Assembly: GCA_030637025.1 (NCBI GenBank)
Contig: DAOVVV010000015.1
Location: 1 to 57,080 of the forward strand
From: Clostridia bacterium
GTDB taxonomy: Bacteria > CBDUZB01 > JAGLHV01
DNA: 57,080 nucleotides
Direction of reading: 5' to 3'
Positions 4,473-28,647 of the stretch are shown piece by piece. Each line of letters opens with the position of its first letter. Within the stretch, counting starts at the first letter, position 1. The translations under genes were made by a program, and so were the position numbers. The notes beneath the pieces are model-generated. The model was not told the origin of the DNA. It saw only the letters and a program-made list of their open reading frames with translations, and made no database searches.

Positions 4473-4671
4473 GTTATTCTCCGGTTTTTAATCTACCTCT
4501 TGGTTTATTCGTATTATATAATATTCTATCCGCCGTTATTTAGCCATAAATAAGTCAAATTACTTTTGTCTTGACTTTTTTATATCAATATGTTATTTTG
4601 GATAACATTGTAAATATTTATAAAATTCAATGATTATCTAATTTATACCGTATAAAGGAGAAAAAACAGTC

Positions 4672-4959
4672 ATGGCTAAATTAAAAACGGGGCGGCATAC
4701 TTCCGTTATCAAAGCTTTGCGTCAAAGCAAAAAAAACCATTTACGTAATGTATCGGCAAAATCTAAAATAAAAACATTAATCAAAAAATTAGAAAAAAAT
4801 ATAACCGATAAAAAATTACCCGAAGCAAAAATAGCTTTAAAAGAAATTTTTTCCAATTTAGATAAAGCAGCCGGCAAAAATATAATCCATAAAAACACTG
4901 CTTCCCGGAAAAAAGCAAGATTATCTAAAAAAATATCTCTTAAAGAAAAAACAAATTAA
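4672..4959 (+). CDS. rpsT: 30S ribosomal protein S20
   Basis: Basic protein with KNIIHKNTASRKKARL C-terminus; AAGGAG RBS. Confidence 0.95.
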   Translation: MAKLKTGRHTSVIKALRQSKKNHLRNVSAKSKIKTLIKKLEKNITDKKLPEAKIALKEIFSNLDKAAGKNIIHKNTASRKKARLSKKISLKEKTN

Positions 4960-5122: not shown

Positions 5123-6121
5123 TTAGCGGGGAATTTGGCAGGTTAATTTTAAAATAAGCAATTCCAAACAAAGGATTGCTTCTTTTTTTCCTGTTTTAAT
5201 TTCTTTATCAGCTAATAATAACAATCTGAAATTATCTTTTAATTCCCGGTAAGAAAAATTCTTTACCTGCTCCATAAATCCCCTAAAGTAAAAATTATGT
5301 ATTTTTAAAAAACCTCTTATTTCTTCATTCGTTGTTCCTTTTTCTAAAAATAATTTCGCTTTAATTAATTTTCTCATAAGGGCTGCAATTCTGACTAATA
5401 TTACTATTGGTTTTTCGCCAGTTTTAACTATATTTTTCATAACTTCCAGGGTTTCTCTCCCTTTCTTCTCCCCTAAATTATTTAATAACTGAAAAATATC
5501 ATTTCCCCTTGTATGTCCGACTATAGAGTGAACATCTTCTATAATAATTCCTTTTCTATCGCCTATATAAATAATCAATTTTTCTATTTCATTGTGTAAA
5601 TCAATTAAATTATTTCCCACCTCTTCTTTCAGATACAAACAAGCATCTTCAGCAATAGTTTTGTTATATTTATAAACTTCTTTCTTTATCCAGGGAGAAA
5701 TCTGATTTTCATAAGGATGTTTAAAAACTATATGTTTTACCTTTGCTCCCATTTCTTTAAAAAATTTCTTTTTAACCTCCCCGGCAAGAAGAACCAAGCA
5801 GGTATTTTTTGACGGTTCTTCTAAATAAGCAATTATTCTCTTTTCATCTTCGGCACTAAATTTTTCTGCATTTTTTACTACTATCATTCTCCATTGAGCC
5901 ATAAAAGGAACTGTTTGAGCACACCGAACAATTTCTTTTCCTGTTCTATCCTTCGCATAAAACAAGTTATAATTAAAATCTTCCCAATTTGGACCTTCTT
6001 TAAGTGCTTCTCTTATTTTTTGTAAAATATTTTTCTTTTGAAAATCTTCTTCCCCTGAAAAAAGATATCCTGTCTCTACTTCTTTCCTGTTTAATTTCAA
6101 AATAAGTTCTTTTTCATTCAT
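5123..6121 (-). CDS. holA: DNA polymerase III delta subunit
   Basis: YLFSGEE, TVPFMAQWRMIVVK, NEIEKL, ADKEIKTG; typical lptE-holA-rpsT context. Confidence 0.93.
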   Translation of the reverse strand: MNEKELILKLNRKEVETGYLFSGEEDFQKKNILQKIREALKEGPNWEDFNYNLFYAKDRTGKEIVRCAQTVPFMAQWRMIVVKNAEKFSAEDEKRIIAYLEEPSKNTCLVLLAGEVKKKFFKEMGAKVKHIVFKHPYENQISPWIKKEVYKYNKTIAEDACLYLKEEVGNNLIDLHNEIEKLIIYIGDRKGIIIEDVHSIVGHTRGNDIFQLLNNLGEKKGRETLEVMKNIVKTGEKPIVILVRIAALMRKLIKAKLFLEKGTTNEEIRGFLKIHNFYFRGFMEQVKNFSYRELKDNFRLLLLADKEIKTGKKEAILCLELLILKLTCQIPR

Positions 6122-6624
6122 TTTTTCCGTCCGCCTGTAATCTTTCTGACAATATCCCCGGCCAAATATTTTAAAACCGTTTCTTTAGCCTCTTCTTCCT
6201 GTTCTTCCTCTATCGCCAGCGGAAAATACCGCGTAAACTGCCGAAAAGTTTTGGTCCATAAATCCTGTGCAGTCGCTAAATCCTTTAAAACAAAAGAAAC
6301 CTGTATTTCCAATTCATATTCTTCCACTTTATTTCCTTCATCAAAACTCATAGGCCGTAAAACATAACTAACAATTTCTCCTTCCAAACAAGCATCAGCC
6401 TCTTCCCTGCCGGTTATTTTCAATTTACCATCTTGTAAAAATTCCTCTATTACCAGATTAGTTAATTTCTCTTCTATTCCATAATAAATAGTTTTATTGC
6501 TCATAGCCGGGATATTTATCTTTTTAATGCCGTCCGGCAAAATAAATACCGGGCCATAATCACAACCAACCATTATTACCGCAATACTCATTAAAAAAAC
6601 AAAAATAATATACTTTAACTTCAT
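6118..6624 (-). CDS. lptE: LPS assembly lipoprotein LptE-like
   Basis: Lipobox MVGC; leuS-lptE-holA synteny; ADACLEGEI motif. Confidence 0.8.
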   Translation of the reverse strand: MKLKYIIFVFLMSIAVIMVGCDYGPVFILPDGIKKINIPAMSNKTIYYGIEEKLTNLVIEEFLQDGKLKITGREEADACLEGEIVSYVLRPMSFDEGNKVEEYELEIQVSFVLKDLATAQDLWTKTFRQFTRYFPLAIEEEQEEEAKETVLKYLAGDIVRKITGGRKK

Positions 6625-6652
6625 TTTTTTCTCCCTTTTTTATAATAATTTT

Positions 6653-6931
6653 TAGACTTCTGCAAAATAGCCTTTTCACCTTTATTGTCATTCCTGCGAA
6701 AGCAGGAATCTATTGATCTTTTAAGCACATTATAGATTCCGCATTAACAGACTGTGTCATAACTGCCGTTTTTGGCTTTGTCATTCCCGAAATCTTTTAT
6801 CGGGAATCCATTTTCCGACGATAATATTTTTCTGTCATCTCCGGGTCAAACCCGAAGATGACAGAAAAAAGCAATTGTGACACGATATCCAAGTGCGGAA
6901 TGACAAAATGTGTCATTTTGCAGAATTCTTA
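6653..6931. repeat. Composite MITE (TAGACTTCTGCAAAAT ends) with a second MITE nested at 6748-6889
   Basis: TIRs TAGACTTCTGCAAAAT / ATTTTGCAGAATTCT; GTCATTCC..GGAATC hairpins; copy without the nested element at 29725-29889. Confidence 0.8.
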
Positions 6932-7382
6932 TAATTTTTAAATACTTGCAAAACACACATTGAAATTATAGTTTAAATTAAAGCTTTTATCAATAAGTTT
7001 CTATTGAAATCTAAACTTTGTTATTATTATTTATTTTTTTAACCGGGATTTTTAATTCTTTACTTTATATTAGCAAATCATTTACCAACTACCCTTTTCT
7101 ATAATATTTTCCTTTTCAAACCTACTTCCGTTTAAACCAAGATAATCTATTTTTATCTACAATTAGTCGTCTCTTCTATGTTATTAAGGCTAGTATTTAT
7201 CAAGACAAATTTGCAATGCCAGTGCAAAATATCCTATTCTTAACAGGGAAGGTGGAGGGGGGGGCAACCAGCTTTCCTATCTTGATAGCTGATTTTTTCA
7301 AATATTTACTCACCAAAAACACTTCTTATTTCTTCTGTCCGTACTTTAAAACTTTAAATAATATTTACTAAGAGCCCATAAT

Positions 7383-7494
7383 ATATGGGAAAATATTTGC
7401 CAAGAAGAAAATTTTCTTTTTATATATACATATCCCATATGGTAAAATTACGGAAATAAAGAAAATTTTCTTATATTTAACTATTTTCCCATAT
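7383..7494. repeat. Symmetric array of alternating palindromes with 54-bp period
   Basis: ATATGGGAAAATA (7383-95) / TATTTTCCCATAT (7482-94), AAGAAAATTTTCTT twice (7405-18, 7459-72) and central CCATATGG (7435-42), all centred on 7438.5. Confidence 0.85.
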
Positions 7495-7519
7495 GAAAAA
7501 ATATAAGATAAATGCACCT

Positions 7520-7597
7520 CTACAATTCCCCTGTAAACACCCAAACACTCTTCTTGCTATATCTTCTGCTAATTACTTTATTATCAACGCTTTGCAT
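7520..7597 (-). pseudogene. Truncated DUF6088/AbiEi-like antitoxin N-terminus
   Basis: AGGAG RBS then MQSVDNKVISRRYSKKSVWVFTGEL*, resembling the MQSIxxKIxxRIYxxGRGWVFT start of DUF6088 proteins (from recall). Confidence 0.55.
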
Positions 7598-7873
7598 TTA
7601 AAACTCCTCTAAATTTTGTCGTAAAAAGTATATATTTTTTGCCATCAGACGCCTCTAATTTCAGATCGTGACAAAATGTCACGACCTCGCTTCCTTCTTT
7701 TTTAAGCCGTTGTTTTAGCTTTCTCCAATATGCTCCGGAATCAGAACTTTCGGTTAAAACCCCGCACAAAACCACCACTCGCCATTATGAATTATCCTTC
7801 TTATCTGTTTTCCCTTAAAAACGGTTAATTTATGAGCCTGTTCAACTTCATTAGTTTTTTTCTTCTTTGACAT
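7584..7873 (-). pseudogene. BRO-N domain (phage antirepressor-like) remnant, frameshifted and truncated
   Basis: Fragments MSKKKKTNEVEQAHKLTV / KQIRRIIHNGEWWF / GVLTESSDSGAYWRKLKQRLKKEGSEVVTFCHDLKLEASDGKKY across frames. Confidence 0.7.
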
Positions 7874-7988
7874 ATTTTTACCCCCTTCATAGGACAAATG
7901 TCATTCCATTAACTGAATTTATTCAATTAATATCGTTTCTTTCATCAAAACTTTAAACTTTTAAACAGCGTCCCTGAATATTCTATTA

Positions 7989-8723
7989 CTATACCAAGAT
8001 GTGTTTCAAATTCTTAGATAATATATCTTTCATATCTTTAATTCCCATATTCTTTAATACTGCCAATTTTTGAATTATTATTTCCAAATCTGACGGATTA
8101 AATGTTTTATTATTTATTTTAATGAAAGGAGCATCACTTTCTATAAGAAGTTTGTTTTCAGGAATTCGGCTTATAATTTTTTTACCATTAGTGCTTTGTA
8201 GCATTGCATAATTAATAGAAAAATAGCATTTTTTTCGAATTGCATCATCAAGTAATTTTAATGCTCCTGAATACCAATGCAAAATCACTTTCCCATTAAA
8301 ACTATCTCCAAGTAGAGATAATACTTTTTCCTCACTACCTCTAGAATGAATACTAAAAATTTTACCACCAATAGAATTACACCGATAAATTAATTCTTCA
8401 AAAAAGCGGATCTGATTTTTACAGTCAATTGTAGATTTTCTTCTCAAATCTAGCCCCACTTCTCCAATATATTTTGCGTTGTCTAAACATCTCCACATTT
8501 CAGGAATGTATTTTTTGTATTCCGTGATCAATTCAGGATGAAAGCCTAGTGCCACACGAATATACTTGGACTTAACTATTTTTTTTAACTTATTATACAA
8601 TGGAGGTAAATTAGTAACTGCAATTGTATAGCTTGCCAGTATTTCAATATCTTCAACAATTTGCAGAATATTATTATTATATAAGTCTAAATGAAAATGT
8701 GTGTCATGTAGAAACTTAATCAT
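7989..8723 (-). CDS. qatD: Qat anti-phage system TatD-family nuclease QatD
   Basis: HDTHFHLD, LGFHPE, IGEVGLD, SIHSR, LHWYSG, ESDAPF; last gene of a KAP-hyp-QueC-TatD operon. Confidence 0.93.
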   Translation of the reverse strand: MIKFLHDTHFHLDLYNNNILQIVEDIEILASYTIAVTNLPPLYNKLKKIVKSKYIRVALGFHPELITEYKKYIPEMWRCLDNAKYIGEVGLDLRRKSTIDCKNQIRFFEELIYRCNSIGGKIFSIHSRGSEEKVLSLLGDSFNGKVILHWYSGALKLLDDAIRKKCYFSINYAMLQSTNGKKIISRIPENKLLIESDAPFIKINNKTFNPSDLEIIIQKLAVLKNMGIKDMKDILSKNLKHILV

Positions 8724-10032
8724 CTAAATCGTCCAATAACTTTGTTAATTCTTTCATTCCTCGTTCATATAAATCTTTATATTCGTTTAGATTATCATGC
8801 AACGGTCCTGACATTTGAATTCGCAAATAATTGTTTGTTGAATTATTATATTTTTGAATACCTATTCTATATGTTTTTAAATTATTGGTAGCTGTTTTAC
8901 CATCTTTAAAATTCGTATCCCTATATGTAGAAGCATCTTGTATATTTGCCCTTTTTATTGATGCTCTCCTGATGACACAAGGTAAACATATACCACAGTG
9001 GCTTGGAGCAGACTCCCCTTGATACCTTCCAACATCTGGATGAGAGCAAGACATAGTATTGCTAATATTGTTAGTTAATAAAATTTTATTTTTACATTCA
9101 AGTATCATTTCTCCTTTTGTTTTAAACTGGTAAGGATTATATAATTTGACTTGAACACTAAGACCTTTTATAAGTTTTTGTATTAGCTTCATATAATATG
9201 GATGTGTTGTTCTTGTACTACTACTACCAAGCCTAGAATTAGTAAGCGGAATATTTAATGAAATAAGTCCATTTTCTGGAATAATTAAATCTATTTCCTT
9301 TTCCATTGTAGTGGCTAAAACAATAGCATGGGCAAAAAACATAAATGATCTTGTTCTTGTAGTATCTTCAACTCCATGAAGAGGTGATGCATGAAACTTA
9401 AAGACTTCAAACTTCTTTAACGGGTATTTTTCTTTTAAAGCATTATGAACATTATCAATAAATTTTGTTCCACTTGAACCTCCTCCATAATGATTTACAA
9501 ATGCAATATTGTCTGATGTTTCAAGTAAATCAATTGCTCCTATATATGAGTCCAAACCACCTGAAAGCATACATAATTTATTAAAAACAAGTTTTTCACT
9601 TCTATTTTTCTCTATTTTTTTCTTAAAATCTTCTTCATGAGAATTCAACTTTCTCACTCTAAATTCAATCTCCCAAATATCACCACTTAAAAATGATAAC
9701 ATTTCCTCTAATAATTCTTTTTGAGATTTCCATTTATATATAGATAAAACAGGCAGGTATAACTTTATTTTTCGAGTCCATGCATCTGGAAACATTTCTC
9801 GTTGTATTAGCCGATCTGCATAGAATATAAACAGAGAAATATATAATAAATCTAAACCTTCAGAAGAATAAAAGAGTGGTAGGCTCTTAAGCTTCTTATT
9901 ATGATATGTTCCTGTATTCCAGAAAGTATAATGATAATGTGCTTTATTTGAGAGATTAACCTCTAATGCCTCTGTTGAAATTGAGAAGTCGTCATCTTCA
10001 TTTAACTTACAGATAATATCTATAGTATCCAT
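8716..10032 (-). CDS. qatC: Qat anti-phage system QueC-like protein QatC
   Basis: SGGLDS PP-loop, PENG, TRTTHP, SCSHP...HCGICLPC Zn site; likely ATG at 10032 overlapping the qatB stop (TAATG). Confidence 0.93.
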   Translation of the reverse strand: MDTIDIICKLNEDDDFSISTEALEVNLSNKAHYHYTFWNTGTYHNKKLKSLPLFYSSEGLDLLYISLFIFYADRLIQREMFPDAWTRKIKLYLPVLSIYKWKSQKELLEEMLSFLSGDIWEIEFRVRKLNSHEEDFKKKIEKNRSEKLVFNKLCMLSGGLDSYIGAIDLLETSDNIAFVNHYGGGSSGTKFIDNVHNALKEKYPLKKFEVFKFHASPLHGVEDTTRTRSFMFFAHAIVLATTMEKEIDLIIPENGLISLNIPLTNSRLGSSSTRTTHPYYMKLIQKLIKGLSVQVKLYNPYQFKTKGEMILECKNKILLTNNISNTMSCSHPDVGRYQGESAPSHCGICLPCVIRRASIKRANIQDASTYRDTNFKDGKTATNNLKTYRIGIQKYNNSTNNYLRIQMSGPLHDNLNEYKDLYERGMKELTKLLDDLDD

Positions 10033-10847
10033 TATAGGGCTCCCTCTATTACAGAATAACAATCCGCATATATCTCATTAATAATTTTCAGTACTGCGAT
10101 TGATGTATAATCAAAGGTAGGCATATTGCGATCTTTTAATTCATTATCTACAACACCAGAAATATATCCTTTTATTTCGTTCTCTATCTTTAAAGCCGAA
10201 CCTTCATTTTGAGAGTGTTCTTCAAATCTACTTTCTAGATCATTTAAAAAACGCTGAAATATGTATGATGCTATATACTTATTCATAACAGTGTTAAATT
10301 TTTCTTCATCCAAGTTGTTTAAAGAATTTATATCATCATTATTTTCTGCAACCTCTTCATAAAGTATTTCCACAGCATCTAATAATGCATTTCTAGCGAC
10401 TGCATCTTCCTTGGTATTTGGAGCTGGTGCAATTTTATTAATTAAATCACCAAGCACTTCTGCAACATTTCGTCCAATAAATTCAATCTTAAATTGGTTT
10501 AATGTATTTTGAATGCCCTGAGATGATATACTAGATAAAAATCCTCCCAATTTTGCAGTTGTCGATTTTCCTGATATTGCTGAATAAGCGGCCTTCCTAG
10601 CTCCACCATGTGCCTTAACATATGATGAAAGAGCAGCATTGGTATTTCTATTTGAGCCGCCTATTAGTCTTGATATTTGAGTCTTTGCATTTTGCCAAAG
10701 TACCGTATTGGGATTCTTTGCTGTATCCTTAAGCGGTTGAGGTTGTTGAGCATCTGGATTTTCAGAAGGAGTTTCGTTGCCATTAAAATCATTGGGTAGT
10801 AAAGGATTTTTACCTTTAGGTCCTCCATAGCTACTTGATGTACCCAT
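10032..10847 (-). CDS. qatB: Qat anti-phage system protein QatB
   Basis: MGTSSSYGGP N-terminus characteristic of QatB; lies between the KAP NTPase and QueC-like genes. Confidence 0.88.
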   Translation of the reverse strand: MGTSSSYGGPKGKNPLLPNDFNGNETPSENPDAQQPQPLKDTAKNPNTVLWQNAKTQISRLIGGSNRNTNAALSSYVKAHGGARKAAYSAISGKSTTAKLGGFLSSISSQGIQNTLNQFKIEFIGRNVAEVLGDLINKIAPAPNTKEDAVARNALLDAVEILYEEVAENNDDINSLNNLDEEKFNTVMNKYIASYIFQRFLNDLESRFEEHSQNEGSALKIENEIKGYISGVVDNELKDRNMPTFDYTSIAVLKIINEIYADCYSVIEGAL

Positions 10848-12676
10848 TATTTAACCTCCTTAAAATCTTTTTTTATTGCAGCCTCTAATTTTGTATTTTC
10901 TTTTGCCCAACGATTCACAATCTCTTGAACTTCGTATGTTTTACCTGTAGATTCCATAAACTCTTTAACTCGTGGAATGATGGTGAATGTTAGTTTGTCA
11001 CCGGTTAACTGATTCAAACAACTAATAGTTCCTGTATATAAAAATTCTTTACTTGCTCCCCATTCTAATAGTGATCTAAATAATTTAAAATTAACCTTTG
11101 AATCAGATAATATTTTATCAGATAACTTTTCTAAAATTATATTGGCTTCTGAATCATTAATACTGGCTAAGGATTTGAGTGCAGTTTTTCTTTGTGAATC
11201 AGCACCGCTTAATAAATTTTCTAAAGTCTTTTTTGCGATTGGAGACAACCTAAACCGTCCTAAATTTAATTGACTTGATAGACTCTCCCGTGAAAAATAG
11301 AAATACGGTCGCAAATCAATATCAGTCAATTTTGGCGATAACCCAATCCAATCAATAACCCATTTATCATCTTTCCATAATTTAAGTTCTTTAATATCAT
11401 CCCAATTATCTTCCTCAATTAACTTAAGTTCATTAGGTTTGCCCTTTTCTAATGATTGAATCTCTGATAATTTTCTAAACAATTCTGCTTTAAAGTATTC
11501 CAACAGCATAAGTTTCGCTAAAACTTTTCTATCTAAAGTCAAGTTTCTATGGAAAGACATTTTTTCTCTCATTGAAAGAGAATTTAAAAATCTTTTACAA
11601 TGTCTCGGATTTCCATTCAGGCCAATTGATAAGACCGAAGAAAGTTGCTTTGCAAGTAATAATGTATCTCTTGAATTAGTAGCTATTTTAGGTAATTCTT
11701 CGTTAAGCTTCTCATATGATAATTCAAATTCAAGGAAATTATCTTTTTTTGATTTTGAAATAAAATCCAAGAATTTGTTAAAGTCTTCATCATTTAATTC
11801 ATTTTGTAAGAGTAAGCACAATATGTAAAACTCAACTTCTCTACTGCTAAGTTGTGGTATCCTGATTGGATATTGAATCATTTTCTCAAGATATTCTTTC
11901 CCAATATCAATTTGATTTCCTTCAATTTCAGAATATTTTTTTCTTACCGAATAAATTACATGCCGTTCATCTGCACCTATAACAAATGAAGTGTTTTGAG
12001 TAAAAAGGAAAAGTCTAATTGCTTCAAGAGTATCTAATATTGTAGCAGGATTACATCTATCAAGTTCATCGATGAAAACTACTAATTTATCTATTTTTGA
12101 TTCTTTAAGTAATTCTGTAAAATCTTTTTGAAATGTTTTAATATTTTTACGAAGCTCTTCACTTTTAAATTCTTTTTTAAGAATATTATCTATATCTTTT
12201 TCTGAAACATTTCTTGGTTTGTCTTTTATTTTAGAAAGAATACTTTTCACTGTAATATCTGCAATCGTACCTATTCCACCTGTTGTTAAAAAATCTATCC
12301 CATATTTCAACCCCATACTTGCTAGTTTTAGCTTATCAGTATTTTTGTATAGTCTTTTAAGTATTTCTTTTGCTTTGCCTGTTGGCGATTTTTTTTTGTT
12401 AATTTTATCAAGTATTGTTCCCAAAAAAGCTGTTTTTGCATCTTCATAGCCTTCAAACAACCAGCCATTAAATTTGATACAAAGAGTATTTTTTTCTTTT
12501 GATAATCCTTCAATGCACATTTGCATGAGACTTGATTTTCCACTTCCCCAATTGCCATAAACCCCAATACTGGACGGGGAAAGATTCTTATCATTGATTA
12601 TATCTGTAACCGTTTCGGTTAAATATTTAAAATCAAGAAAATCAATTTTAGTCTCACTATCTTTCCACATTTTCAT
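10847..12676 (-). CDS. qatA: Qat anti-phage system KAP-family P-loop NTPase QatA
   Basis: MWKDSETKIDFLDF start, Walker A GNWGSGKS, Walker B VFIDELDRC, YLEKMIQ, NPRHCKRFLN. Confidence 0.93.
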   Translation of the reverse strand: MKMWKDSETKIDFLDFKYLTETVTDIINDKNLSPSSIGVYGNWGSGKSSLMQMCIEGLSKEKNTLCIKFNGWLFEGYEDAKTAFLGTILDKINKKKSPTGKAKEILKRLYKNTDKLKLASMGLKYGIDFLTTGGIGTIADITVKSILSKIKDKPRNVSEKDIDNILKKEFKSEELRKNIKTFQKDFTELLKESKIDKLVVFIDELDRCNPATILDTLEAIRLFLFTQNTSFVIGADERHVIYSVRKKYSEIEGNQIDIGKEYLEKMIQYPIRIPQLSSREVEFYILCLLLQNELNDEDFNKFLDFISKSKKDNFLEFELSYEKLNEELPKIATNSRDTLLLAKQLSSVLSIGLNGNPRHCKRFLNSLSMREKMSFHRNLTLDRKVLAKLMLLEYFKAELFRKLSEIQSLEKGKPNELKLIEEDNWDDIKELKLWKDDKWVIDWIGLSPKLTDIDLRPYFYFSRESLSSQLNLGRFRLSPIAKKTLENLLSGADSQRKTALKSLASINDSEANIILEKLSDKILSDSKVNFKLFRSLLEWGASKEFLYTGTISCLNQLTGDKLTFTIIPRVKEFMESTGKTYEVQEIVNRWAKENTKLEAAIKKDFKEVK

Positions 12677-12689
12677 TCTCCATTAAGAC

Positions 12690-12761
12690 TTATAACGTTT
12701 AAGCTCACTGGATTTCACGGAGCGCAGCGGAGTGAAATTCCAGTGCAGCGCCTTGTTAGGT
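12690..12761 (-). mobile_element. Integron attC recombination site (72 bp)
   Basis: - strand: R'' ACCTAAC ... GCT-G-CACTGGAATTTCAC / GTGAAATCCAGTG-AGC stem with an unpaired base ... R' GTTATAA. Confidence 0.9.
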
Positions 12762-12779
12762 GAATTTTTCCCGCACAAA

Positions 12780-13772
12780 CTAGAATATTGGACCTGAATG
12801 GTCTGGTGCATTTGATCCTGCCTCAAAATTCATCAAATTAAAGAAACTCCTCCTTGTATCAGTATCATATAAGTCAACACTGCCAATATGGTGATAACCG
12901 CAATCTCTTGTTTTTGAGTACAGGCGGCCATTTATTTTTTCAGTATTCAATTCAACTGTTAGTGCTCCAAAATCTATTTCATAGACATTCTTAAGTATTT
13001 TCTGGGTAGGGCTTGGAAACCTCTTTTTGTATTTATCGTTATATGGTGGTTCAAAATACCTTATTAACCCGGCCTCAATAAGCGATATTTCAAGATCCTT
13101 TGATATTAAAGCATGTTGCTTTTGTAGATCAGCAATAACATCACGATCATCTTCGAGTTTTAATGATTTATCTCGACCATCAAACGAAATAATTGTTTGG
13201 GGTGAGACATATTGAGCCATAATTATAAGAGCCTCCATATCTGGAAAATCATTATTTATATCTGCCAACACTTGTTGCAACGTAGAATGACTCTGTAACC
13301 TGTCCTTTGCCGAGCGCCTTCCTTCAGCATATGACATTCCAATATAAACGACTTCTAAATCACGAATAGATTGATCATTAATGTAATCACACATCATACA
13401 TAAGAGATGTGCTGGAGCAGTAAAAAAAGTTACACCATCCTTAATTAGCGAGAGTTTTGTGTGTGGATAGTCACTAATTTCAATTGAATCGGCATTTGCT
13501 TCACCTATCAACGAGAATTCAACTTCCTTTGCAACTCCATTCTTACGATAAGTAAATTTACCTATTGTCTTGCAATCATCTACAACAATTGATCCAGGAA
13601 CATAAGAAATACGAGGTCTTTTGACGATTAAATAGATATGGCAGTCGTCAGCCAGTTCATTAGCTTCTTGAGATTGCTGCTCTATATTCTTAATCTCTTT
13701 TGGGTGCAACAATAACAGCCCATCAGAATAAAAGCTCAGAGCTAATTCAGAAATGTATTTTCTAGTCGCCAT
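12780..13772 (-). CDS. Cassette-borne hypothetical protein, probable divergent GIY-YIG nuclease
   Basis: HIY(45-47)...YIG(143-145)...R158...E233-AGLIRYFEPPY-N245, paralleling the UvrC N-terminal motifs. Confidence 0.65.
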   Translation of the reverse strand: MATRKYISELALSFYSDGLLLLHPKEIKNIEQQSQEANELADDCHIYLIVKRPRISYVPGSIVVDDCKTIGKFTYRKNGVAKEVEFSLIGEANADSIEISDYPHTKLSLIKDGVTFFTAPAHLLCMMCDYINDQSIRDLEVVYIGMSYAEGRRSAKDRLQSHSTLQQVLADINNDFPDMEALIIMAQYVSPQTIISFDGRDKSLKLEDDRDVIADLQKQHALISKDLEISLIEAGLIRYFEPPYNDKYKKRFPSPTQKILKNVYEIDFGALTVELNTEKINGRLYSKTRDCGYHHIGSVDLYDTDTRRSFFNLMNFEAGSNAPDHSGPIF

Positions 13773-13808
13773 CTTTGATTATTCACACCTTTCTAGAATG
13801 TATTTTTC

Positions 13809-13874
13809 TCCTAACATTAAAAATCACCTGCCCGAACCCGTAGGGTGAGGGTCAGGTGGATTGCTTTGTTGGAA
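13809..13874 (-). mobile_element. Integron attC recombination site (66 bp)
   Basis: - strand: R'' TTCCAAC ... AATC-C-ACCTGACC / GGGCAGGT-GATT stem ... R' GTTAGGA. Confidence 0.88.
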
Positions 13875-14552
13875 TTTCTTTATTATTATTGAATAAATAT
13901 TACCCCCAACAGATGAAGTTGTCTTTTCAATGTCACGCATTGTATTCTGGAAAGCTCTTTTAATGCTTTTGTCTTCGGGAATTCCTTGTTTTATATATTT
14001 TTTTGTATATGAAGTCATGATTTCGATAGGATTAAGCTTATTCCCACTATTAGTACATAAAACTGCAAATTCAAAAGAATCTTTTTTAATGTCTAATTTT
14101 CTTTCTTGAATTGAAAAAGGTTGTTTATGCATATTATCTATGATAAATAACATAGGGAGGTTATTTTTGTCGTATCCTGCAATAAAAACTATAAGTCTTC
14201 TGTCTTTCTTTGTAGTTGTTAGATTCCATTTATCAATAATTATTCTTTGTGCAACATGGACGATATCCTGAATATTATTAGCTACATTTATATTTTCTAT
14301 TATTTCTTCTGTTAATTCTGGAATATAAACCCCAGCTGTAAGCATACCAATCTTATTTGTTATTTGATGCACTTTTGATATATTATTTAAAGCAATTTTA
14401 CCTGATTTGTTATAAGTTGTCCTTCCATCTGAAAAAAGGTATATGGAATCATTTGAAAAAATGGCAGCTATTAATGTTCCAGAGAAATAATAATTCTCAA
14501 AACAAAAAACGCTAAATATTAAAGAAGCAATTATAAATACAGTCTTATTCAT
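13824..14552 (-). CDS. Cassette-borne proteasome-beta/Ntn-hydrolase-like protein with N-terminal signal peptide
   Basis: Hydrophobic leader, then G|T1..D17-G-R19-T-T21..K35..AG49 and C-terminal SVGGNI; ORF reads through the attC site. Confidence 0.65.
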   Translation of the reverse strand: MNKTVFIIASLIFSVFCFENYYFSGTLIAAIFSNDSIYLFSDGRTTYNKSGKIALNNISKVHQITNKIGMLTAGVYIPELTEEIIENINVANNIQDIVHVAQRIIIDKWNLTTTKKDRRLIVFIAGYDKNNLPMLFIIDNMHKQPFSIQERKLDIKKDSFEFAVLCTNSGNKLNPIEIMTSYTKKYIKQGIPEDKSIKRAFQNTMRDIEKTTSSVGGNIYSIIIKKFQQSNPPDPHPTGSGR

Positions 14553-14559
14553 TTTTATT

Positions 14560-14590
14560 ATTCCAACATTATATATTATCTGGTTACTCT
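14560..14590 (-). mobile_element. attI-like cassette insertion site (G|TTGGAAT core)
   Basis: GTTGGAAT at 14567-14560 is the exact complement of the first cassette's R'' ATTCCAAC; no attC hairpin upstream. Confidence 0.6.
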
Positions 14591-14614
14591 ATTTTCAGAA
14601 AACCACACTACATT

Positions 14615-14644
14615 ATTATAAAAAACAAAAGGGTTTAGTGTCAA
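14615..14644 (-). promoter_or_regulatory. Consensus sigma70 promoter (Pc-like) facing the cassette array
   Basis: TTGACA(14644-39)-N18-TATAAT(14620-15). Confidence 0.75.
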
Positions 14645-14829
14645 CTTTTTTATTTTTTCTCTTGCCCGATGACAAAACACATGATATTTAATAGTTATAC
14701 AGTGACTGCATAAATTGACAAAGGTGTTATTAAAATGGACTGTTTTGAAAAACATTGCTTAAAGTTTTAATTTATTGAAGTATCTGTCCCCTATGTTCGC
14801 CTATATTTTTTCTATCTCCCTGTTTTCTC

Positions 14830-15597
14830 CTATTGAGGCAAGTTATTAATTTTTTCCATAAGTAATTCTTTTAAATTATCCACAATCTTTCTTTGTTGTA
14901 AAGGTAAGAACTTACCTAAATCCTGTGACATCTTTTTAGAATTAATTGCTTTTATCTTCCTGACTAAATCATCCGGGGATATCTTCTTTTTGTAATAAAG
15001 CATCTTTTTATTAACCATTTCCCAATTAATCCGGACTTGTTTTGTTAGCAAGAACCAGATATCAAAAAAATCCCTTCCTTTTGCTCTGGTCATTATTGCT
15101 CTTATTTTCTCAGCAAGAATCTCCTCTATTTCTAAATGACGAATAACAGGATATGGTCCAACAGGAAAAAGGGTTTCTAAAATGCTTTCTTTACTGGTTA
15201 AAGGTTTTTCCCGGAAAGAAAAATCCAAATGAACATTTAAAGGAAATTTCAAATTTTCTGCTTTAAAACTTAAAAATCCTGTTAAACTCACCTTGCTAAT
15301 TTCTATTTTCTTTAATGTTACATTAGGAATAGTCAAATTGGTATCTTTAAGAGCTTTTTCTAAAATCTTAAATAATTTTTTTCCGGAAATAAGGGAAGTA
15401 AAATCTAAATCTTCGGAAAACCTAAAAGATTGAAACAAAAGTCTTAGAGCAGTCCCCCCTTTGAAAAAAATTTTATCACTTTCTCTCCGGGTATAGAGAT
15501 TGGAAAGAAAAACTATCTGTAAATATTCTCTTATTACAGAAAATTTATCTATCTTAAATTTCTGACTCAAATTTTGAATTTGTTCCGTCGTAATCAT
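14830..15597 (-). CDS. abiEii: Type IV TA toxin, AbiEii-family nucleotidyltransferase
   Basis: FKGGTALRL..FRFSEDLDF, EILAEKIRA, RAKGRDFFD. Confidence 0.92.
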   Translation of the reverse strand: MITTEQIQNLSQKFKIDKFSVIREYLQIVFLSNLYTRRESDKIFFKGGTALRLLFQSFRFSEDLDFTSLISGKKLFKILEKALKDTNLTIPNVTLKKIEISKVSLTGFLSFKAENLKFPLNVHLDFSFREKPLTSKESILETLFPVGPYPVIRHLEIEEILAEKIRAIMTRAKGRDFFDIWFLLTKQVRINWEMVNKKMLYYKKKISPDDLVRKIKAINSKKMSQDLGKFLPLQQRKIVDNLKELLMEKINNLPQ

Positions 15598-16172
15598 TTT
15601 ATTATCTTTCTTAATAAATTATGAAAAATGGGGCTTTTTATCTTTGAGGCCAGTTGTTTTAAACGAACAGGATCAACATCTTTAAGAATCCACTCCTCAG
15701 AATTAATCGAAGTCCTCCCAAAAGATGCAAAAAAAATAGTATCTATAATTGCCTTTTCCTTATCGGCAATAAGAAATTTATCATTTTGATCATACCCAAA
15801 ATAATATCTTTGATCCAGATGTAAGTAAATAAATTCTTTATCACCAATTATAAAACGTTTTGTTCGCCTTGGGGTAACAGAAATAATTACTTGTGGAACC
15901 TGGAGAAGAATACCGTAATAAGCCAACGCCGATTCTAAAGAAATATAAGACGGTTTATACAAAAAATTAGCAATTTCAAAATTATCTAATTTCCTCAATC
16001 CTAAACAATAAACATCCCTTTTCAGCCTTAATAGCAGACCCGATTCAGTTAGTCTGTTTAATTGTGTATAAACAGTTTTATCTTTTAAATAAAGCAGTTT
16101 CTTCAAGTCTGCTAAACTGAAAAGAGACTTATTAGATTTTTCCAATACTCTAATAACTTCTAATTGTTTCAA
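15594..16172 (-). CDS. abiEi: Type IV TA antitoxin, AbiEi family
   Basis: wHTH N-terminus, PSYISLESALAYYG, ADKEKAIID; 4-bp overlap with the toxin gene. Confidence 0.9.
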   Translation of the reverse strand: MKQLEVIRVLEKSNKSLFSLADLKKLLYLKDKTVYTQLNRLTESGLLLRLKRDVYCLGLRKLDNFEIANFLYKPSYISLESALAYYGILLQVPQVIISVTPRRTKRFIIGDKEFIYLHLDQRYYFGYDQNDKFLIADKEKAIIDTIFFASFGRTSINSEEWILKDVDPVRLKQLASKIKSPIFHNLLRKIIK

Positions 16173-16303
16173 TCAATTACCCTCTAGCAAGCTACAAGGT
16201 ATGCAACTGTTGAATTATTCTAAAAATCCCCCTATCCCCCTTTTTCAAAGGGGGAACCCAACAAAGCAACCCCATAGCAAACACAAATTAAACCTCACCT
16301 GCT

Positions 16304-16356
16304 AATATATCCACAATACTTAACAATATTGTAAAGGATTGTGCATATATTGTCAA
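16304..16356 (-). promoter_or_regulatory. abiE promoter with overlapping 24-bp-arm inverted-repeat operator
   Basis: TTGACA(16356-51)-N17-TACAAT; IR arms 16304-16327 and 16328-16351 with 3 mismatches. Confidence 0.75.
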
Positions 16357-16397
16357 GTTGTTTTTTAACAACCTTGCCTCATTCCTTAAATATTATT

Positions 16398-16561
16398 AGG
16401 ATAGGGCAAATGTGTTTCGAACGATATAGCAAATTTTAGCGAAAATAAGCGTTAAAAAAATGAGCTTGTCTGAGCAAAGCGAGTTGCTCATTTTTAGCTT
16501 GTTTTTGCGTGCCCGCAGGGTAAAATTATGCGTCCAGAGAGAAACATATTTTGGCTTTATT
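16398..16561. repeat. MITE-like element (AATAAAGGCTAAATATGTTT-type ends)
   Basis: Homologous to 28393-28637 at both ends; central hairpin AAAAATGAGC..GCTCATTTTT. Confidence 0.7.
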
Positions 16562-16655
16562 AAACCACCCTATTTGTCCAATTGTTTTTTAAGGATTTTT
16601 CCCGGATTATTATTGAGCCCTTTAAGATAATTAGGTCTTCGGTCAGTTTTTAATA

Positions 16656-16796
16656 CAGACTGTGTCACAATTCAATTTTCTGGTTAGTAATTTCAAACCT
16701 TTAGGTTGCATCATCGACGAAGAAATTACGCAGGCTTCCTCCTCAGGCGGACAAGAAAGCCTGCGACTACCTAAAGAAAGGGCCTGTCACAGTTTG
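16656..16796. repeat. MITE-like element (CAGACTGTGTCA ends) with REP hairpins, overlapping the leuS stop
   Basis: CAGACTGTGTCAC ... GTCACAGTTTG; CGCAGGCTT..AAGCCTGCG-ACTAC hairpin. Confidence 0.6.
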
Positions 16797-19249
16797 ATGA
16801 CAATATTTACTAATTTTTTAGGAACGGAGATTACTTTTATGATTTCTTTATCCTGAATATAAGATTTTATTTTATCATCTTCCAGGGATTTTTCCTCTAT
16901 TTCCTTTTGTGACAAATCTGCCGGGAGTAAAATTTTATTTCTTACTTTTCCGTTTACCTGGATTATGATTAAAATTTCCTCTTGCTTAATATATTCCGGA
17001 TTATATTCCGGCCAGGGATGACTCAAAATACTTTCTTTATTTCCCAGGATCCCCCACATTTCCTCACAAATGTGCGGAGTAAAAGGAGAAAGCAACAAAA
17101 CAACCGTTTTCACCGCATCACAGGAAAGTTTATCTCCTAAATTTTTATATTGATATAGATGATTTACCAATTCCATAATCAAGGCAATAGCCGTATTAAA
17201 ATGAAACTCTTTTTCAACATCCCGGGTAACCCGCTTAATAGTTAAATGGGTTTTCCTGAGTAATTCCTTTTGTTCTTTTAAATCTTCTTTACTATTATTA
17301 GCAACTCCTATTTTACTCTCTACTAATTTATTTACCAATCTCCAGACCCGATTTAAAAAACGAAAACTACCCTCCACCCCTTTATCGCTCCACTCCAAAT
17401 CATTCTCCGGAGGAGAGGCAAATAAAATAAATAACCGGGCAGTATCAGCCCCGTATTTTTCTATAATTACACTGGGATCTACTACGTTTCCCAACGATTT
17501 ACTCATTTTCGCTCCGTCCTTAATTACCATCCCCTGGCAAAGCAGTTTCTTAAACGGTTCATCTATATTATGCAATCCTATGTCTCTTAAAACCTTAGTG
17601 AAAAAACGGGCATAGAGTAAATGCAAAACAGCATGTTCTATCCCCCCGATATACTGGTCTACCGGCATCCAATATTCAATTGCTTGTTTATTAAAAGGAA
17701 GAGTAGTTTCACAGGGACAACAATAACGCATAAAATACCAGGAAGAATCGACAAAAGTATCCATAGTATCGGTTTCCCTGCGGGCATCACCCTGACATTG
17801 GGGACATTTACAATGCACAAATTCTTCGCAATGAGCTAAGGGATTTCCCTTACCGGTAAATTTAACTTTTTGGGGTAACCTTACCGGAAGCTCTTCCTGA
17901 AGAACCGGTACAACCCCACATTTCTCACAATAAATAATCGGTATCGGTGCTCCCCAATAACGCTGACGGGAAATCAACCAATCTCTTAATTTATACCGAA
18001 TTGTTTTTTTTCCTTTTCCTTCTTTTTCCAAATATTCGGTGATTTCCTCTAGCGCTTTCGTACTTTTCATTCCGGTAAATTTTTCAGAATTAACCATTAC
18101 CCCTTCTTCTATATATGCCTCTTTCATTTTACCCGAATCTAATTGTTTATCCGGGGGAGTAATCACTACTTTTAAATTAAGACCATACTTAACCGCAAAC
18201 TCAAAATCCCGCTGATCATGACAGGGAACAGCCATCACCGCCCCGGTTCCATAATCCATTAAAACAAAATTAGCTATAAAAATAGGAATTTCTTCTCCTG
18301 TTACAGGATTAACAGCGTAACGGCCGGTAAAGATTCCTTCTTTTTCTTTGTCATCGGCCATACGGGTAAATTTATCTTCAATTATTATCCGGTTAATAAA
18401 TTCCTTTACTTCTTTTTCATGTTTCGTTCCTTTAATTAGCTCTAAAACCTGTGGATGTTCACAGGCAAAATTAAGAAAAGTTACTCCGTATAAAGTATCC
18501 GGCCTGGTAGTAAATACAGGAATTTTTTCCTGACTATCTTTTATGTCAAAATAAATAAGCGTTCCTTCACTTTTACCAATCCAGTTTTTCTGCATTAGTT
18601 TTACGCGTTCCGGCCAGCCATCTAATTGTTTTAAACTATCCAGCAATTCTTCTGCATAAGCTGTTATCTTGAAAAACCATTGTTCTAAATTTTTAATCTC
18701 TACTTCACCGTTACAACGCCAACATTTCCCTTCTTTTGCCTGTTCATTAGCCAATACCGTCTTACAGGAAGGACACCAATTTATCGGGGCTTTTTTCTTA
18801 TAAGCCAGTCCCTTTTGGTAAAACTTTAAAAAGAGCCATTGATTCCAACGATAATATTCCTCATCACAGGTAACCACTAATCTTTCCCAGTCATACCCCA
18901 TACCCAACCTTTTCTGCTGTTCCTGCATAGAAGAAATACATTGTTTGGTCCATGTCTGGGGATGAGAATCATTTTTAATGGCTGCATTTTCTGCAGGTAA
19001 TCCCAATGAATCATAGCCCATCGGATAAAGAACATTAAACCCTCTCATCCGTAAAAATCGATGAAGGGTATCACCGATAGTATAATTGCGTACATGTCCC
19101 ATATGTAATTTTCCGGAAGGATAGGGAAACATTTCCAGAAGATAAAATTTTTTCTTATTCTTATCCTCTTTACACTGAAATATTTTTTCTTCTTTCCAGT
19201 AATTTTGCCATTTTGGTTCTATTTTTTCAAAATCATATTCTCTGTACAT
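16787..19249 (-). CDS. leuS: Leucine--tRNA ligase
   Basis: MFPYPSGKLHMGH, KMSKS, CP1 editing domain. Confidence 0.98.
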   Translation of the reverse strand: MYREYDFEKIEPKWQNYWKEEKIFQCKEDKNKKKFYLLEMFPYPSGKLHMGHVRNYTIGDTLHRFLRMRGFNVLYPMGYDSLGLPAENAAIKNDSHPQTWTKQCISSMQEQQKRLGMGYDWERLVVTCDEEYYRWNQWLFLKFYQKGLAYKKKAPINWCPSCKTVLANEQAKEGKCWRCNGEVEIKNLEQWFFKITAYAEELLDSLKQLDGWPERVKLMQKNWIGKSEGTLIYFDIKDSQEKIPVFTTRPDTLYGVTFLNFACEHPQVLELIKGTKHEKEVKEFINRIIIEDKFTRMADDKEKEGIFTGRYAVNPVTGEEIPIFIANFVLMDYGTGAVMAVPCHDQRDFEFAVKYGLNLKVVITPPDKQLDSGKMKEAYIEEGVMVNSEKFTGMKSTKALEEITEYLEKEGKGKKTIRYKLRDWLISRQRYWGAPIPIIYCEKCGVVPVLQEELPVRLPQKVKFTGKGNPLAHCEEFVHCKCPQCQGDARRETDTMDTFVDSSWYFMRYCCPCETTLPFNKQAIEYWMPVDQYIGGIEHAVLHLLYARFFTKVLRDIGLHNIDEPFKKLLCQGMVIKDGAKMSKSLGNVVDPSVIIEKYGADTARLFILFASPPENDLEWSDKGVEGSFRFLNRVWRLVNKLVESKIGVANNSKEDLKEQKELLRKTHLTIKRVTRDVEKEFHFNTAIALIMELVNHLYQYKNLGDKLSCDAVKTVVLLLSPFTPHICEEMWGILGNKESILSHPWPEYNPEYIKQEEILIIIQVNGKVRNKILLPADLSQKEIEEKSLEDDKIKSYIQDKEIIKVISVPKKLVNIVIKL

Positions 19250-28392: not shown

Positions 28393-28637
28393 AATAAAGG
28401 CTAAATATGTTTTGAACGACTTAGCAAGTTTTAGCGAAAATAAGCATTTGCAAACCGCATTTTTTAAAACCTCAATTTAATCAATTTAAACTTCCAAATC
28501 ATATATCTGTTGTCTTTATTCCGTTGTCTATGGACTATCGACTATGGACTATCGACTGTGGACTATGGACTATTTTGTTTTTGCGTGCCCGAAGGGTAAA
28601 ATTACGCGTTTAGAGAGAAACATATTTTGCCTTTATT
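28393..28637. repeat. MITE with 20-bp TIRs carrying a T(G/C)GACTA heptamer tandem repeat
   Basis: AATAAAGGCTAAATATGTTT / AAACATATTTTGCCTTTATT (1 mismatch); six heptamers at 28531-28572. Confidence 0.8.
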
Positions 28638-28647
28638 AAACCACATC

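Follow-up and report, generated by a model that had tools for sequence, protein, structure and literature searches.

The question raised by this locus is whether a proteasome-type enzyme can be exported from the cytoplasm of a bacterium. The window analyzed here is a whole stretch of 57,080 nucleotides (nt) from Clostridia bacterium (GenBank assembly GCA_030637025.1, contig DAOVVV010000015.1). A gene on its minus strand encodes a 242-amino-acid (aa) proteasome-like protein, designated P0001, which begins with a hydrophobic leader. An earlier note on this DNA had described it as an exported or membrane-tethered threonine protease of a defence array. The present analysis revealed that P0001 is a real but deeply divergent proteasome-type N-terminal nucleophile (Ntn) hydrolase. 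The best explanation of the data, with a probability of about 0.62, is that a member of this clade is made with an export leader, cuts itself at a Gly-Thr bond, and acts on envelope substrates without an ATPase. P0001 is most suitably classed as a new, exported variant of the proteasome-like family, with a defence role unproven.

Family membership and predicted fold

The N-terminus of P0001 consisted of MNK, TVFIIASLIFSVFCF and ENYYFSG, followed by TLIAAIFSNDSIYLFSDGRTT from Thr26 onward. In the numbering of the mature protein (in brackets), Thr26 (1), Asp42 (17), Arg44 (19), Thr46 (21), Lys60 (35), and Ala73-Gly74 (48-49) could be located, while SVGGNI occupied residues 214-219. The lysine was found at mature position 35, not 33, because of a two-residue insertion. 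Codons were checked on the DNA (Gly25, 14478-14480; Thr26, 14475-14477), and every residue previously named (the Gly-Thr junction, D17, R19, T21, K35, AG49, and SVGGNI) was present in the open reading frame (ORF). As a family feature, the SVGGNI motif was reduced to its two glycines, with IGG as the consensus.

Comparison with Pfam assigned P0001 to PF00227 with 28.6 bits (gathering score 22.4) and an E-value of 1.3e-6, the match spanning residues 24-139 and profile positions 3-124 of 189. P0001 was the sole PF00227 match in its own 2.36-Mb genome. The same family was matched individually at E ≤ 0.01 by 28 of the 36 aligned clade members. The archaeal beta-subunit model of NCBIfam gave 18.9 bits (cut-off 224), and the PHROGs search with P0001 returned nothing useful. 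A HMMER scan of 1.84 billion cluster representatives recovered 49 relatives at E ≤ 1e-3, with 30 at ≤ 1e-10 and 3 at ≤ 1e-30, and a word-indexed search of 5.8 billion clusters gave four matches with identities of 100, 75, 65, and 40%. Among the clade relatives with source names, none was named beyond 'hypothetical protein'; the nearest ESM Atlas clusters were also 'hypothetical protein' sets, commonest in Bacteroidota and Acidobacteriota. Judged by these sequence comparisons, P0001 is a member of a rare, unnamed, and unannotated clade of PF00227 / MEROPS T1-type Ntn hydrolases.

The clade alignment was constructed from 36 of 51 proteins, P0021, 25, 27, 31, 32, 38-41, 44-46, and 48-50 being left out as short or partial. 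Residues L39, D42, G43, K60, G74, F201, and G217 were invariant, and G25, S41, R44, G126, and G216 were conserved in at least 90% of the sequences. Three of the invariant residues, D42, K60, and G74, are the equivalents of proteasome Asp17, Lys33, and Gly47. A (T)GSG/NSG motif was also observed in the clade at the place expected for Gly128-Ser129-Gly130, where the positions of Ser129, and of Asp166 and Ser169 discussed below, follow what we take to be the reference numbering. The nucleophile and leader were counted in a set of 69 sequences (P0001-P0051 and 18 others), from which five N-terminally truncated sequences without the Asp17 motif were dropped. In the resulting 64, a descriptive sample that includes near-duplicates and alternative starts of the same genes, the residue at -1 of the putative cut site was Gly in 62 members, and the residue at +1 was Thr in 56 and Ser in four, with Ala, Asn, Gly, and Ile once each. 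The Asn is probably a register slip. Thr26, the proposed nucleophile, was conserved in most homologues, and the refuting condition set by the earlier note did not apply.

The AlphaFold2 model of P0001, predicted from the 36-sequence alignment, had a mean predicted local distance difference test score (pLDDT) of 89.3 and a predicted template modelling score (pTM) of 0.84. Its secondary structure elements were arranged in the plain proteasome order (S1-S5, H1-H2, S6-S9, H3-H4, S10). The uncertain parts were only the leader (helix 4-15, pLDDT 53-56) and the last ~17 residues, a C-terminal tail common only to P0002 and P0003, the two closest homologues. When the model was compared with PDB using Foldseek, the top matches were all 20S beta subunits (best E 2e-10, probability 1.00). 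With VIA-align, Z values of 17-18 were obtained over 177-189 residues. The Rhodococcus beta subunit carrying its propeptide (1q5r_H) superposed with Z 18.2 and a root-mean-square deviation (rmsd) of 2.8 Å over 183 residues. Residue 26 was the first aligned residue against chains numbered from Thr1, namely 1q5q_H, 3unb_1, 6muv_L, and the Anbu chain 5nyw_Q. The model thus predicts the alpha-beta-beta-alpha sandwich of Ntn hydrolases in a form that matches 20S beta. Together with the Pfam match and the conserved Gly-1, Thr1, Asp17, Lys33, and Gly47, it bears out the earlier assignment to the proteasome-type Ntn hydrolases, and P0001 is almost certainly a proteasome-fold threonine hydrolase.

The leader and its proposed maturation

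Hydropathy analysis revealed that the most hydrophobic 15-aa Kyte-Doolittle window of the whole protein was residues 4-18 (mean 2.59), in agreement with the 25-aa hydrophobic leader ending in Gly that had been described before. By inspection and hydropathy, this leader has a tripartite layout made up of MNK, the hydrophobic core, and ENYYFSG. A strongly hydrophobic leader (11-aa Kyte-Doolittle window ≥ 1.8) could be detected in 32 of the 64 members. The leaders of many relatives consisted of a K/R n-region, a hydrophobic core, and an A-x-A-like end, followed by a linker of 5-20 residues before the Gly-Thr bond. Examples, with slashes at the two sites, are MKKLITILFLIPLTLFA/QQ...ETG/T (LFA/QQ), MKYYIYLLIFTLLIPISA/SF...NG/T (ISA/SF), ...LLAVVVFA/ES...GG/T, and ...VVSALA/GG...GG/T. 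RR-containing n-regions were observed in a few relatives, which start with MTRRRW... or MTPMRR....

Some of the short leaders could be traced to the start codon that had been called. The homologue ORF at locus L003 opens with a lipoprotein-type leader, MINKSYYLSLFFIIMSC ('...IIMSC'), and P0181 (MSCSSEVKETG/T) is 100% identical to that ORF minus the leader; its short leader is a start miscall because an internal Met of an L003-type ORF was taken as the start. Similarly, the ORF of P0012 (MHCG/T) carries in-frame upstream hydrophobic sequence, MILSRLIIWTISFFLIIIAL / MILSRLIIWTISFFLIIIALNRYSK.... Read from the extended frames, at least two 'short-leader' entries (P0181 and P0012) are start-codon miscalls which hide a hydrophobic or lipoprotein-type leader. 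Two more entries begin with the same 'MSC' as P0181 and would also be start miscalls.

The host is a diderm, with LptE and MurJ encoded in the window, and the following course can be proposed for P0001. The protein would be made from its own strong promoter, and MNK with the 15-residue hydrophobic segment would direct it into or across the inner membrane, so that the catalytic domain would be periplasmic. The Gly25-Thr26 bond would then be cut, most likely autocatalytically as in beta subunits because P0001 has no good A-x-A signal-peptidase site, by which the domain would be freed from its anchor and Thr26 exposed. Homologues with an A-x-A site would be cut twice. Thr26, together with Asp42, Lys60, and the Gly74 oxyanion hole, would finally hydrolyze peptide or amide bonds of envelope substrates with no ATPase partner. 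The data show the family membership, the predicted fold, the conserved catalytic residues, the hydrophobic leader, the signal-type leaders of relatives, and a sporadic, accessory distribution; from these we infer the export, topology, self-cleavage, activity, and substrate of P0001. The weakest link is the reading of its leader as a signal anchor that would be freed by self-cleavage at Gly25-Thr26, which was adopted because neither an A-x-A nor a lipobox site is present in the leader. P0001 is probably exported or membrane-anchored and matured at Gly25-Thr26. The earlier claim of an exported or tethered threonine protease is thus supported by the hydrophobic leader and by the signal peptides of the relatives, but not by a signal-peptidase site in P0001 itself.

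Several observations weigh against this explanation. The leader of P0001 has no canonical signal-peptidase I site, as Phe occupies -3 of FSG/T, and the context of Cys17 is SVFC, in which Phe at -1 of the Cys makes no lipobox; LptE, also encoded in this window, reads ...IMVGC at its Cys. As called, 32 of the 64 members are without a hydrophobic leader. The homologue at locus L004 (5730..6431) has no hydrophobic leader and no possible upstream extension, and the family is therefore mixed, not uniformly exported. Export was judged from inspection and hydropathy, and the structural evidence for P0001 is predicted throughout. Similarity to solved proteasome chains is marginal: the single-sequence search with P0001 gave no match among PDB sequences, and with the clade profile, alpha and beta chains of solved 20S structures scored similarly (best E 7e-4 and 1.2e-3). 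The equivalents of proteasome Asp166 and Ser169 are not conserved in the clade, where the consensus before and at the GG is x-x-x-I-G-G. P0004, the nearest relative outside the immediate subclade (40% identity), has Ala at the nucleophile position, and two further members have Gly or Ile there. The redundancy of the 64-sequence set mentioned above is to be added to these points.

The gene in its genomic setting

The order in the direction of transcription is leuS, AbiEi, AbiEii, the P0001 gene, a gene for a 330-aa protein, QatABCD, debris, and lptE with holA (Table 1). The P0001 gene had been placed earlier on the first cassette, in the promoter-proximal slot; it is in fact the third gene of the island, after AbiEi and AbiEii, and has its own consensus promoter.

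Table 1. Coordinates of the proteasome-like gene, its parts, the promoter-plus-leader element and the neighbouring genes; positions refer to the window unless another contig is named.
Feature	Position	Strand	Basis
CDS of the proteasome-like protein P0001, 242 aa	13824..14552	minus	ORF list, Pfam PF00227
P0001 leader, codons 1-25: MNK, 15-residue hydrophobic core (T4-F18), ENYYFSG, ending in Gly25	14478..14552	minus	
Codon of Thr26, candidate N-terminal nucleophile (Thr1)	14475..14477	minus	Structural alignment, family conservation
Stretch with the codons of Asp42 (14427-14429), Lys60 (14373-14375) and Gly74 (14331-14333)	14331..14429	minus	Invariant in the 36-sequence alignment
P0001 C-terminal tail, low confidence, ~residues 226-242, QQSNPPDPHPTGSGR	13824..13877	minus	pLDDT 57 then 47
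Consensus sigma-70-type promoter, TTGACA-18-TATAAT, 12/12 matches	14615..14644	minus	Pattern scan
Repeated promoter-plus-leader element, ~190-210 nt, abutting the P0001 start codon	14553..14763	minus	Genome repeat search
Element copies, contig C11 (L015)	3061-3259, 4653-4823, 8315-8499		Genome repeat search
Element copy, contig C66 (L016)	2451-2629		Genome repeat search
330-aa gene, candidate GIY-YIG-type nuclease with inserted beta domain, downstream	12780..13772	minus	PHROGs, weak fold matches
QatA-QatB-QatC-QatD defence system, downstream	7989..12676	minus	PADLOC: 1.7e-127, 1.9e-38, 1.3e-122, 3e-62
lptE, holA	Downstream side of island		After ~1.3 kb of small-ORF debris
AbiEii, upstream	14830-15597	minus	Pfam, PADLOC
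AbiEi, upstream	15594-16172	minus	Pfam, PADLOC
leuS, upstream	16787-19249		

The promoter belongs to a repeated element. Its TTGACA-18-TATAAT site was kept in six of six aligned genomic copies; the promoter scan overall was not enriched (8 sites vs 11.9 expected from shuffles). Five further copies with 84-89% identity were located in the genome, on contigs C66, C11 (three), and C34, and ~55 conserved nt of the element reach to ~10 nt from the start codon. Each checked copy directly precedes a different small gene, and the three consecutive copies of C11 precede small genes encoding hydrophobic N-termini. RNAalifold on the six copies revealed no consensus pairs, and Rfam gave no match for the element, with one sub-threshold match elsewhere. 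The element may serve as an expression cassette that is portable, or it may be the terminal part of a mobile element. An integron-like cassette reading was ruled out, as each unit has its own promoter and no attC-like paired repeats were found around the gene in repeat searches of 6000-17000. The small-gene array of contig C11, possibly another variable region of this genome, ends in a 462-aa ORF (L015 9248-10636, plus strand) in which a DGQQR motif and an HNH-like C-terminal end can be made out by eye, resembling, also by eye, the DUF262/GmrSD-type nucleases. At the other end of the P0001 gene, the last 12 codons (13825-13859) are G+C-rich; this 35-mer was considered as a repeat element and ruled out, being unique within the window.

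Window positions 10800-16300 were also compared with sequencing runs X2, X5, X6, and X7, and near-identical contigs carrying the P0001 gene could be found in runs of three studies. Run X5 gave an 810-nt contig over 13813-14617 with 9 differences, and run X6 a 441-nt contig over 14139-14579 with 3 differences. In runs X6 and X7, the AbiE pair (14710-16252) was spanned by a contig of 1,541 nt showing 115 differences. Many contigs accumulate at 14565-14787 and the assemblies are interrupted there, a pattern that the promoter-leader repeat element would lead one to expect.

The 330-aa gene lies 51 nt downstream of the P0001 gene. Its product matched phrog_15714 (unknown function) with an E-value of 1.9e-38, and Pfam GIY_YIG_2 at E 0.081 only. 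The model of this protein had a pLDDT of 89.2. Foldseek against PDB gave nothing at E ≤ 0.001, and the VIA fold matches were weak (T4 EndoII Z 5.5, UvrC GIY-YIG Z 5.0, I-TevI Z 4.1, PD-T4-3 Z 4.0). The invariant residues HIY...YVG...R...H...E...N point to a GIY-YIG core into which a beta domain has been inserted, and the protein is a candidate single-gene nuclease of defence islands. Its family, highly conserved and spread over several phyla, consisted of 327 clusters, 46-79% identical and all 'hypothetical', in Vibrio, Massilia, Xanthomonas, Desulfobacteraceae, and others, and was also present in 28 plasmid records. As this family is much larger than the P0001 clade, it is no obligate partner of P0001, and the 330-aa gene is probably independent of the proteasome-like gene.

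In a sister genome, which belongs to the same genus and encodes an LptE with 77% identity, the region upstream of lptE is occupied by entirely different genes (DUF3800, a protein with a histone-deacetylase domain, and five ORFs that match no Pfam family). The leuS-lptE site is therefore a variable hotspot. The P0001 gene was absent from three other genomes of its genus, which make up the rest of the sampled phylum. Sampling of Acidobacteriota, in two sets of 401 and 301 genomes, recovered it from one genome per set, each time the holder already known; the gene is therefore sporadic, which fits horizontal spread and names no function. A profile search of genome contigs with the narrow clade alignment confirmed none of 35 stretches, and three pattern scans of viral contigs with clade alignments confirmed 0 of 18, 0 of 68, and 0 of 134 stretches. 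A tblastn comparison of P0001 with 50,697 phage records and 72,556 plasmid records gave no match.

Neighbourhoods of homologues were analyzed at five other loci (L002-L006). At the two Acidobacteriota loci, L005 and L006, the homologue bears a signal-type leader and is arranged tail-to-tail with the gene of a large M16 peptidase. One of these loci has M28 and M3 peptidase genes and a redoxin upstream of the homologue, and the other a Rce1-like protease and a metallophosphatase near it. In L005 (8070-11721, minus strand, genome G004), the M16 and M16_C domains occur in two overlapping frames, by a frameshift or an assembly error, and the L006 counterpart is one intact 1,165-aa ORF. On the Bacteroidota-like contig of L003, the homologue lies between a GNAT gene and the gene of a 726-aa protein with a signal-peptide-like N-terminus. 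The metagenome contig of L004 encodes a PNP_UDP_1 phosphorylase, a cytidine/dCMP-type deaminase, a Schlafen/AlbA_2 protein, and a Cdc6-like ATPase. Three weak PADLOC matches were obtained at this locus (dCTPase E 9.6e-8, mad8 E 9.4e-5, TRIP13 E 1.4e-4), and none at E ≤ 0.001 for the L004 homologue itself. The L002 contig of only 1,279 nt is too short to judge the context. No recurrent operon partner was found across the five loci, and the only neighbour common to two of them is the convergent M16 peptidase. The neighbourhood comparison yielded one loosely defence-like locus, two loci among peptidases, one neutral, and one too short.

Several repeats were observed at the edges of the leuS-lptE island. 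The edge sequences (16403-16568; 6628-6687/6890-6929) recur with 77-93% identity around a 348-aa gene at 28648-29694, where the copies (28398-28644 and 29700-29759/29849-29888) stand in the opposite order. The island is also bracketed by a 29-nt direct repeat (6747-6775, 16655-16683), the first 13 nt of which are identical. These edge sequences and the 29-nt repeat are possible insertion-site or boundary repeats. A ~93-nt repeat at 16408-16500, which sits at the island edge between the AbiEi start and the leuS stop, has at least 48 further copies (86-97% identity), which are scattered over the 77 contigs of the genome and frequently lie at their ends, and is a miniature inverted-repeat transposable element (MITE)- or repetitive extragenic palindrome (REP)-like element. 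Between QatD and lptE, at 7584-7897 on the minus strand, overlapping short ORFs of 47 aa and 64 aa in different frames look like what is left of a single, frameshifted gene. Apart from them, 6624-7989 contains nothing but debris and a palindrome of 56 nt (7383-7494).

Competing readings and known systems

The island itself invites another reading, in which P0001 would be an envelope-located or tethered anti-phage threonine protease that degrades phage proteins or triggers abortive infection, alone or with the GIY-YIG-like gene. The gene is flanked by AbiE and QatABCD within an island of 10 kb that is inserted into the leuS-lptE interval, it is sporadic and accessory, and the sister genome carries quite different genes at the same site. 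One of the five homologue loci (L004) is beside loosely defence-like genes, and the downstream 330-aa protein weakly resembles GIY-YIG nucleases, including the defence enzyme PD-T4-3. The location in a defence island is circumstantial, however. PADLOC-DB v2 gave no family at E ≤ 1 for P0001 or for its 330-aa neighbour, and no operon partner is common to the five homologue loci, of which two lie among peptidase genes and one beside GNAT and secreted-protein genes. The 330-aa family is far wider (327 vs 4 clusters in the same kind of search), so the two genes form no obligate pair, and the L004 homologue, the sole one in a defence-like context, is the leaderless one. No paper tying proteasome homologues to phage defence was found in the literature, subscription journals being outside the coverage. 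The defence role proposed in the earlier note is thus possible by location only, and it must be regarded as unlikely. A more far-reaching version is quite improbable. In it, a self-activating T1 protease would reach the envelope by means of a signal anchor, free itself by its own Gly-Thr cut, and keep out phages or other invaders as the product of a single gene, which would move from one variable genome site to another with the portable promoter-leader element.

P0001 could also be a cytoplasmic homologue of the Anbu/BPH/HslV kind, the hydrophobic N-terminus of which would be an assembly or inhibitory propeptide and no export signal. The propeptides of beta subunits are likewise cut at Gly-1/Thr1, half of the family entries are without a hydrophobic leader, one ORF is not extendable, and the A-x-A site is missing in P0001; the characterized relatives are all cytoplasmic (Fuchs et al. 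2017, 2018, 2021). However, the full n-h-c leaders of the relatives, with small residues at -3/-1, a lipobox-like MSC, or RR and a separate linker before the Gly-Thr bond, would be unexpected for a propeptide. No part of P0001 is more hydrophobic than the uninterrupted 15-residue run that follows Lys3, and the genome has neither HslU above the cut-off nor a second PF00227 gene. A cytoplasmic role is considered unlikely. Different chemistry on the same fold was considered as well: P0001 might be an amidase or acylase whose substrates are envelope lipids, peptidoglycan, or signal molecules, a connectase-like ligase, or an inactive scaffold. In favour of this, conservation is lacking at Asp166 and Ser169, the profile search places the clade at about the same distance from alpha and beta subunits, and a few members have no Thr or Ser at +1. 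Other exported Ntn hydrolases (penicillin acylase, PvdQ, gamma-glutamyltranspeptidase) are understood to be acylases or transpeptidases, and the proteasome-like family is reported to include the specific ligase connectase. The Thr/Asp/Lys/Gly set of peptidase-active beta subunits is nevertheless kept in nearly all members, and the model has no connectase-type insertion over the active site, so that non-protease chemistry is very improbable. An exported, self-cleaving threonine protease acting in the envelope without an ATPase thus remains the preferred explanation.

If this explanation is correct, P0001 would be unusual, as the characterized proteasome relatives (20S, HslV, Anbu, BPH, and connectase) work in the cytoplasm. 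With a clade whose leaders are of the Sec, lipoprotein, or RR type and precede a conserved Gly-Thr bond, proteasome-type chemistry would extend to the ATP-free periplasm. Such a clade also raises the question of whether maturation is carried out by signal peptidase, by self-cleavage, or by both, and whether a lipid or membrane anchor can be released by self-cleavage. P0001 offers a small (~200-residue), partner-free threonine hydrolase for biochemical study. If the location in a defence island is meaningful, an extracytoplasmic protease would be added to the defence repertoire, and if the envelope-barrier version were true, P0001 would stand for a new class of immunity at the level of the envelope, as the first T1 protease outside the cytoplasm. 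Exported proteasome homologues were not found described within the literature coverage given above, which excluded subscription journals; the earlier note likewise knew of no such system.

Among the known systems, the 20S beta subunit (Rhodococcus/Mycobacterium PrcB, archaeal PsmB) resembles P0001 in its predicted fold (Z 18.2 for 1q5r_H; Z 17.6, rmsd 2.8 Å, 182 residues for 3mka_R), in a leader that ends in Gly before Thr1, and in the invariant equivalents of Asp17, Lys33, and Gly47. It differs in that the identity to P0001 is ~15% and in that its leader is a soluble propeptide, whereas that of P0001 is hydrophobic and signal-like. The P0001 genome, moreover, has no alpha subunit and no second PF00227 gene, and Asp166/Ser169 are not kept in the clade. 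HslV (ClpQ) is likewise a single-gene bacterial proteasome-type threonine protease of the same Pfam family. It is cytoplasmic and starts at the Thr after Met; in contrast, P0001 has a 25-residue hydrophobic leader. No HslU above the cut-off was found in the P0001 genome (97.8% complete), where the best TIGR00390 match, a 422-aa frame, reached 95.5 bits vs 362 and is likely another Clp-type ATPase. Among the 60 PDB sequences matched by the clade profile at E ≤ 1, none was a chain of HslV, Anbu, or BPH.

Structures of Anbu also match the P0001 model (5nyw_Q, Z 17.3, rmsd 3.0 Å, 179 residues; 5lox_1, Z 17.0, rmsd 2.9 Å, 179 residues). The study of Fuchs, Alva & Lupas 2021 (PMC8665760), the broadest survey of new homologues considered here, reported, according to its main text, 22 new proteasome-like subfamilies with no informative gene context, and propeptides in most beta and HslV subunits and in no other homologue. 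Like Anbu, BPH, and those 22 subfamilies as described there, the P0001 clade is an orphan with no ATPase partner and no informative gene context, and, as in group II/WPH of that text, its profile hits alpha and beta about equally. Unlike the P0001 clade, the 22 subfamilies are given no export signals: a term search of the main text found no mention of signal peptide, membrane, periplasm, or secreted, the word signal occurring only once, as part of a journal name among the references. The clade may be one of the 22 or a further subfamily. Phage proteasome-like proteins collected in BFVD, such as that of Gordonia phage Nymphadora (A0A142KAQ6), have the same fold as P0001 by Foldseek (E 3.9e-10, TM-score 0.67 on the query), and share at most 18% identity with it. 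A parallel to the proposed maturation can be seen in penicillin G acylase, the PvdQ-type acylases, and gamma-glutamyltranspeptidase, which are understood to be exported by a Sec-type route and then to undergo autoproteolysis that exposes an N-terminal nucleophile. These belong to other Ntn families, are two-chain mature enzymes, and have no detectable sequence relation to P0001; they show what P0001 may work like, not what it is.

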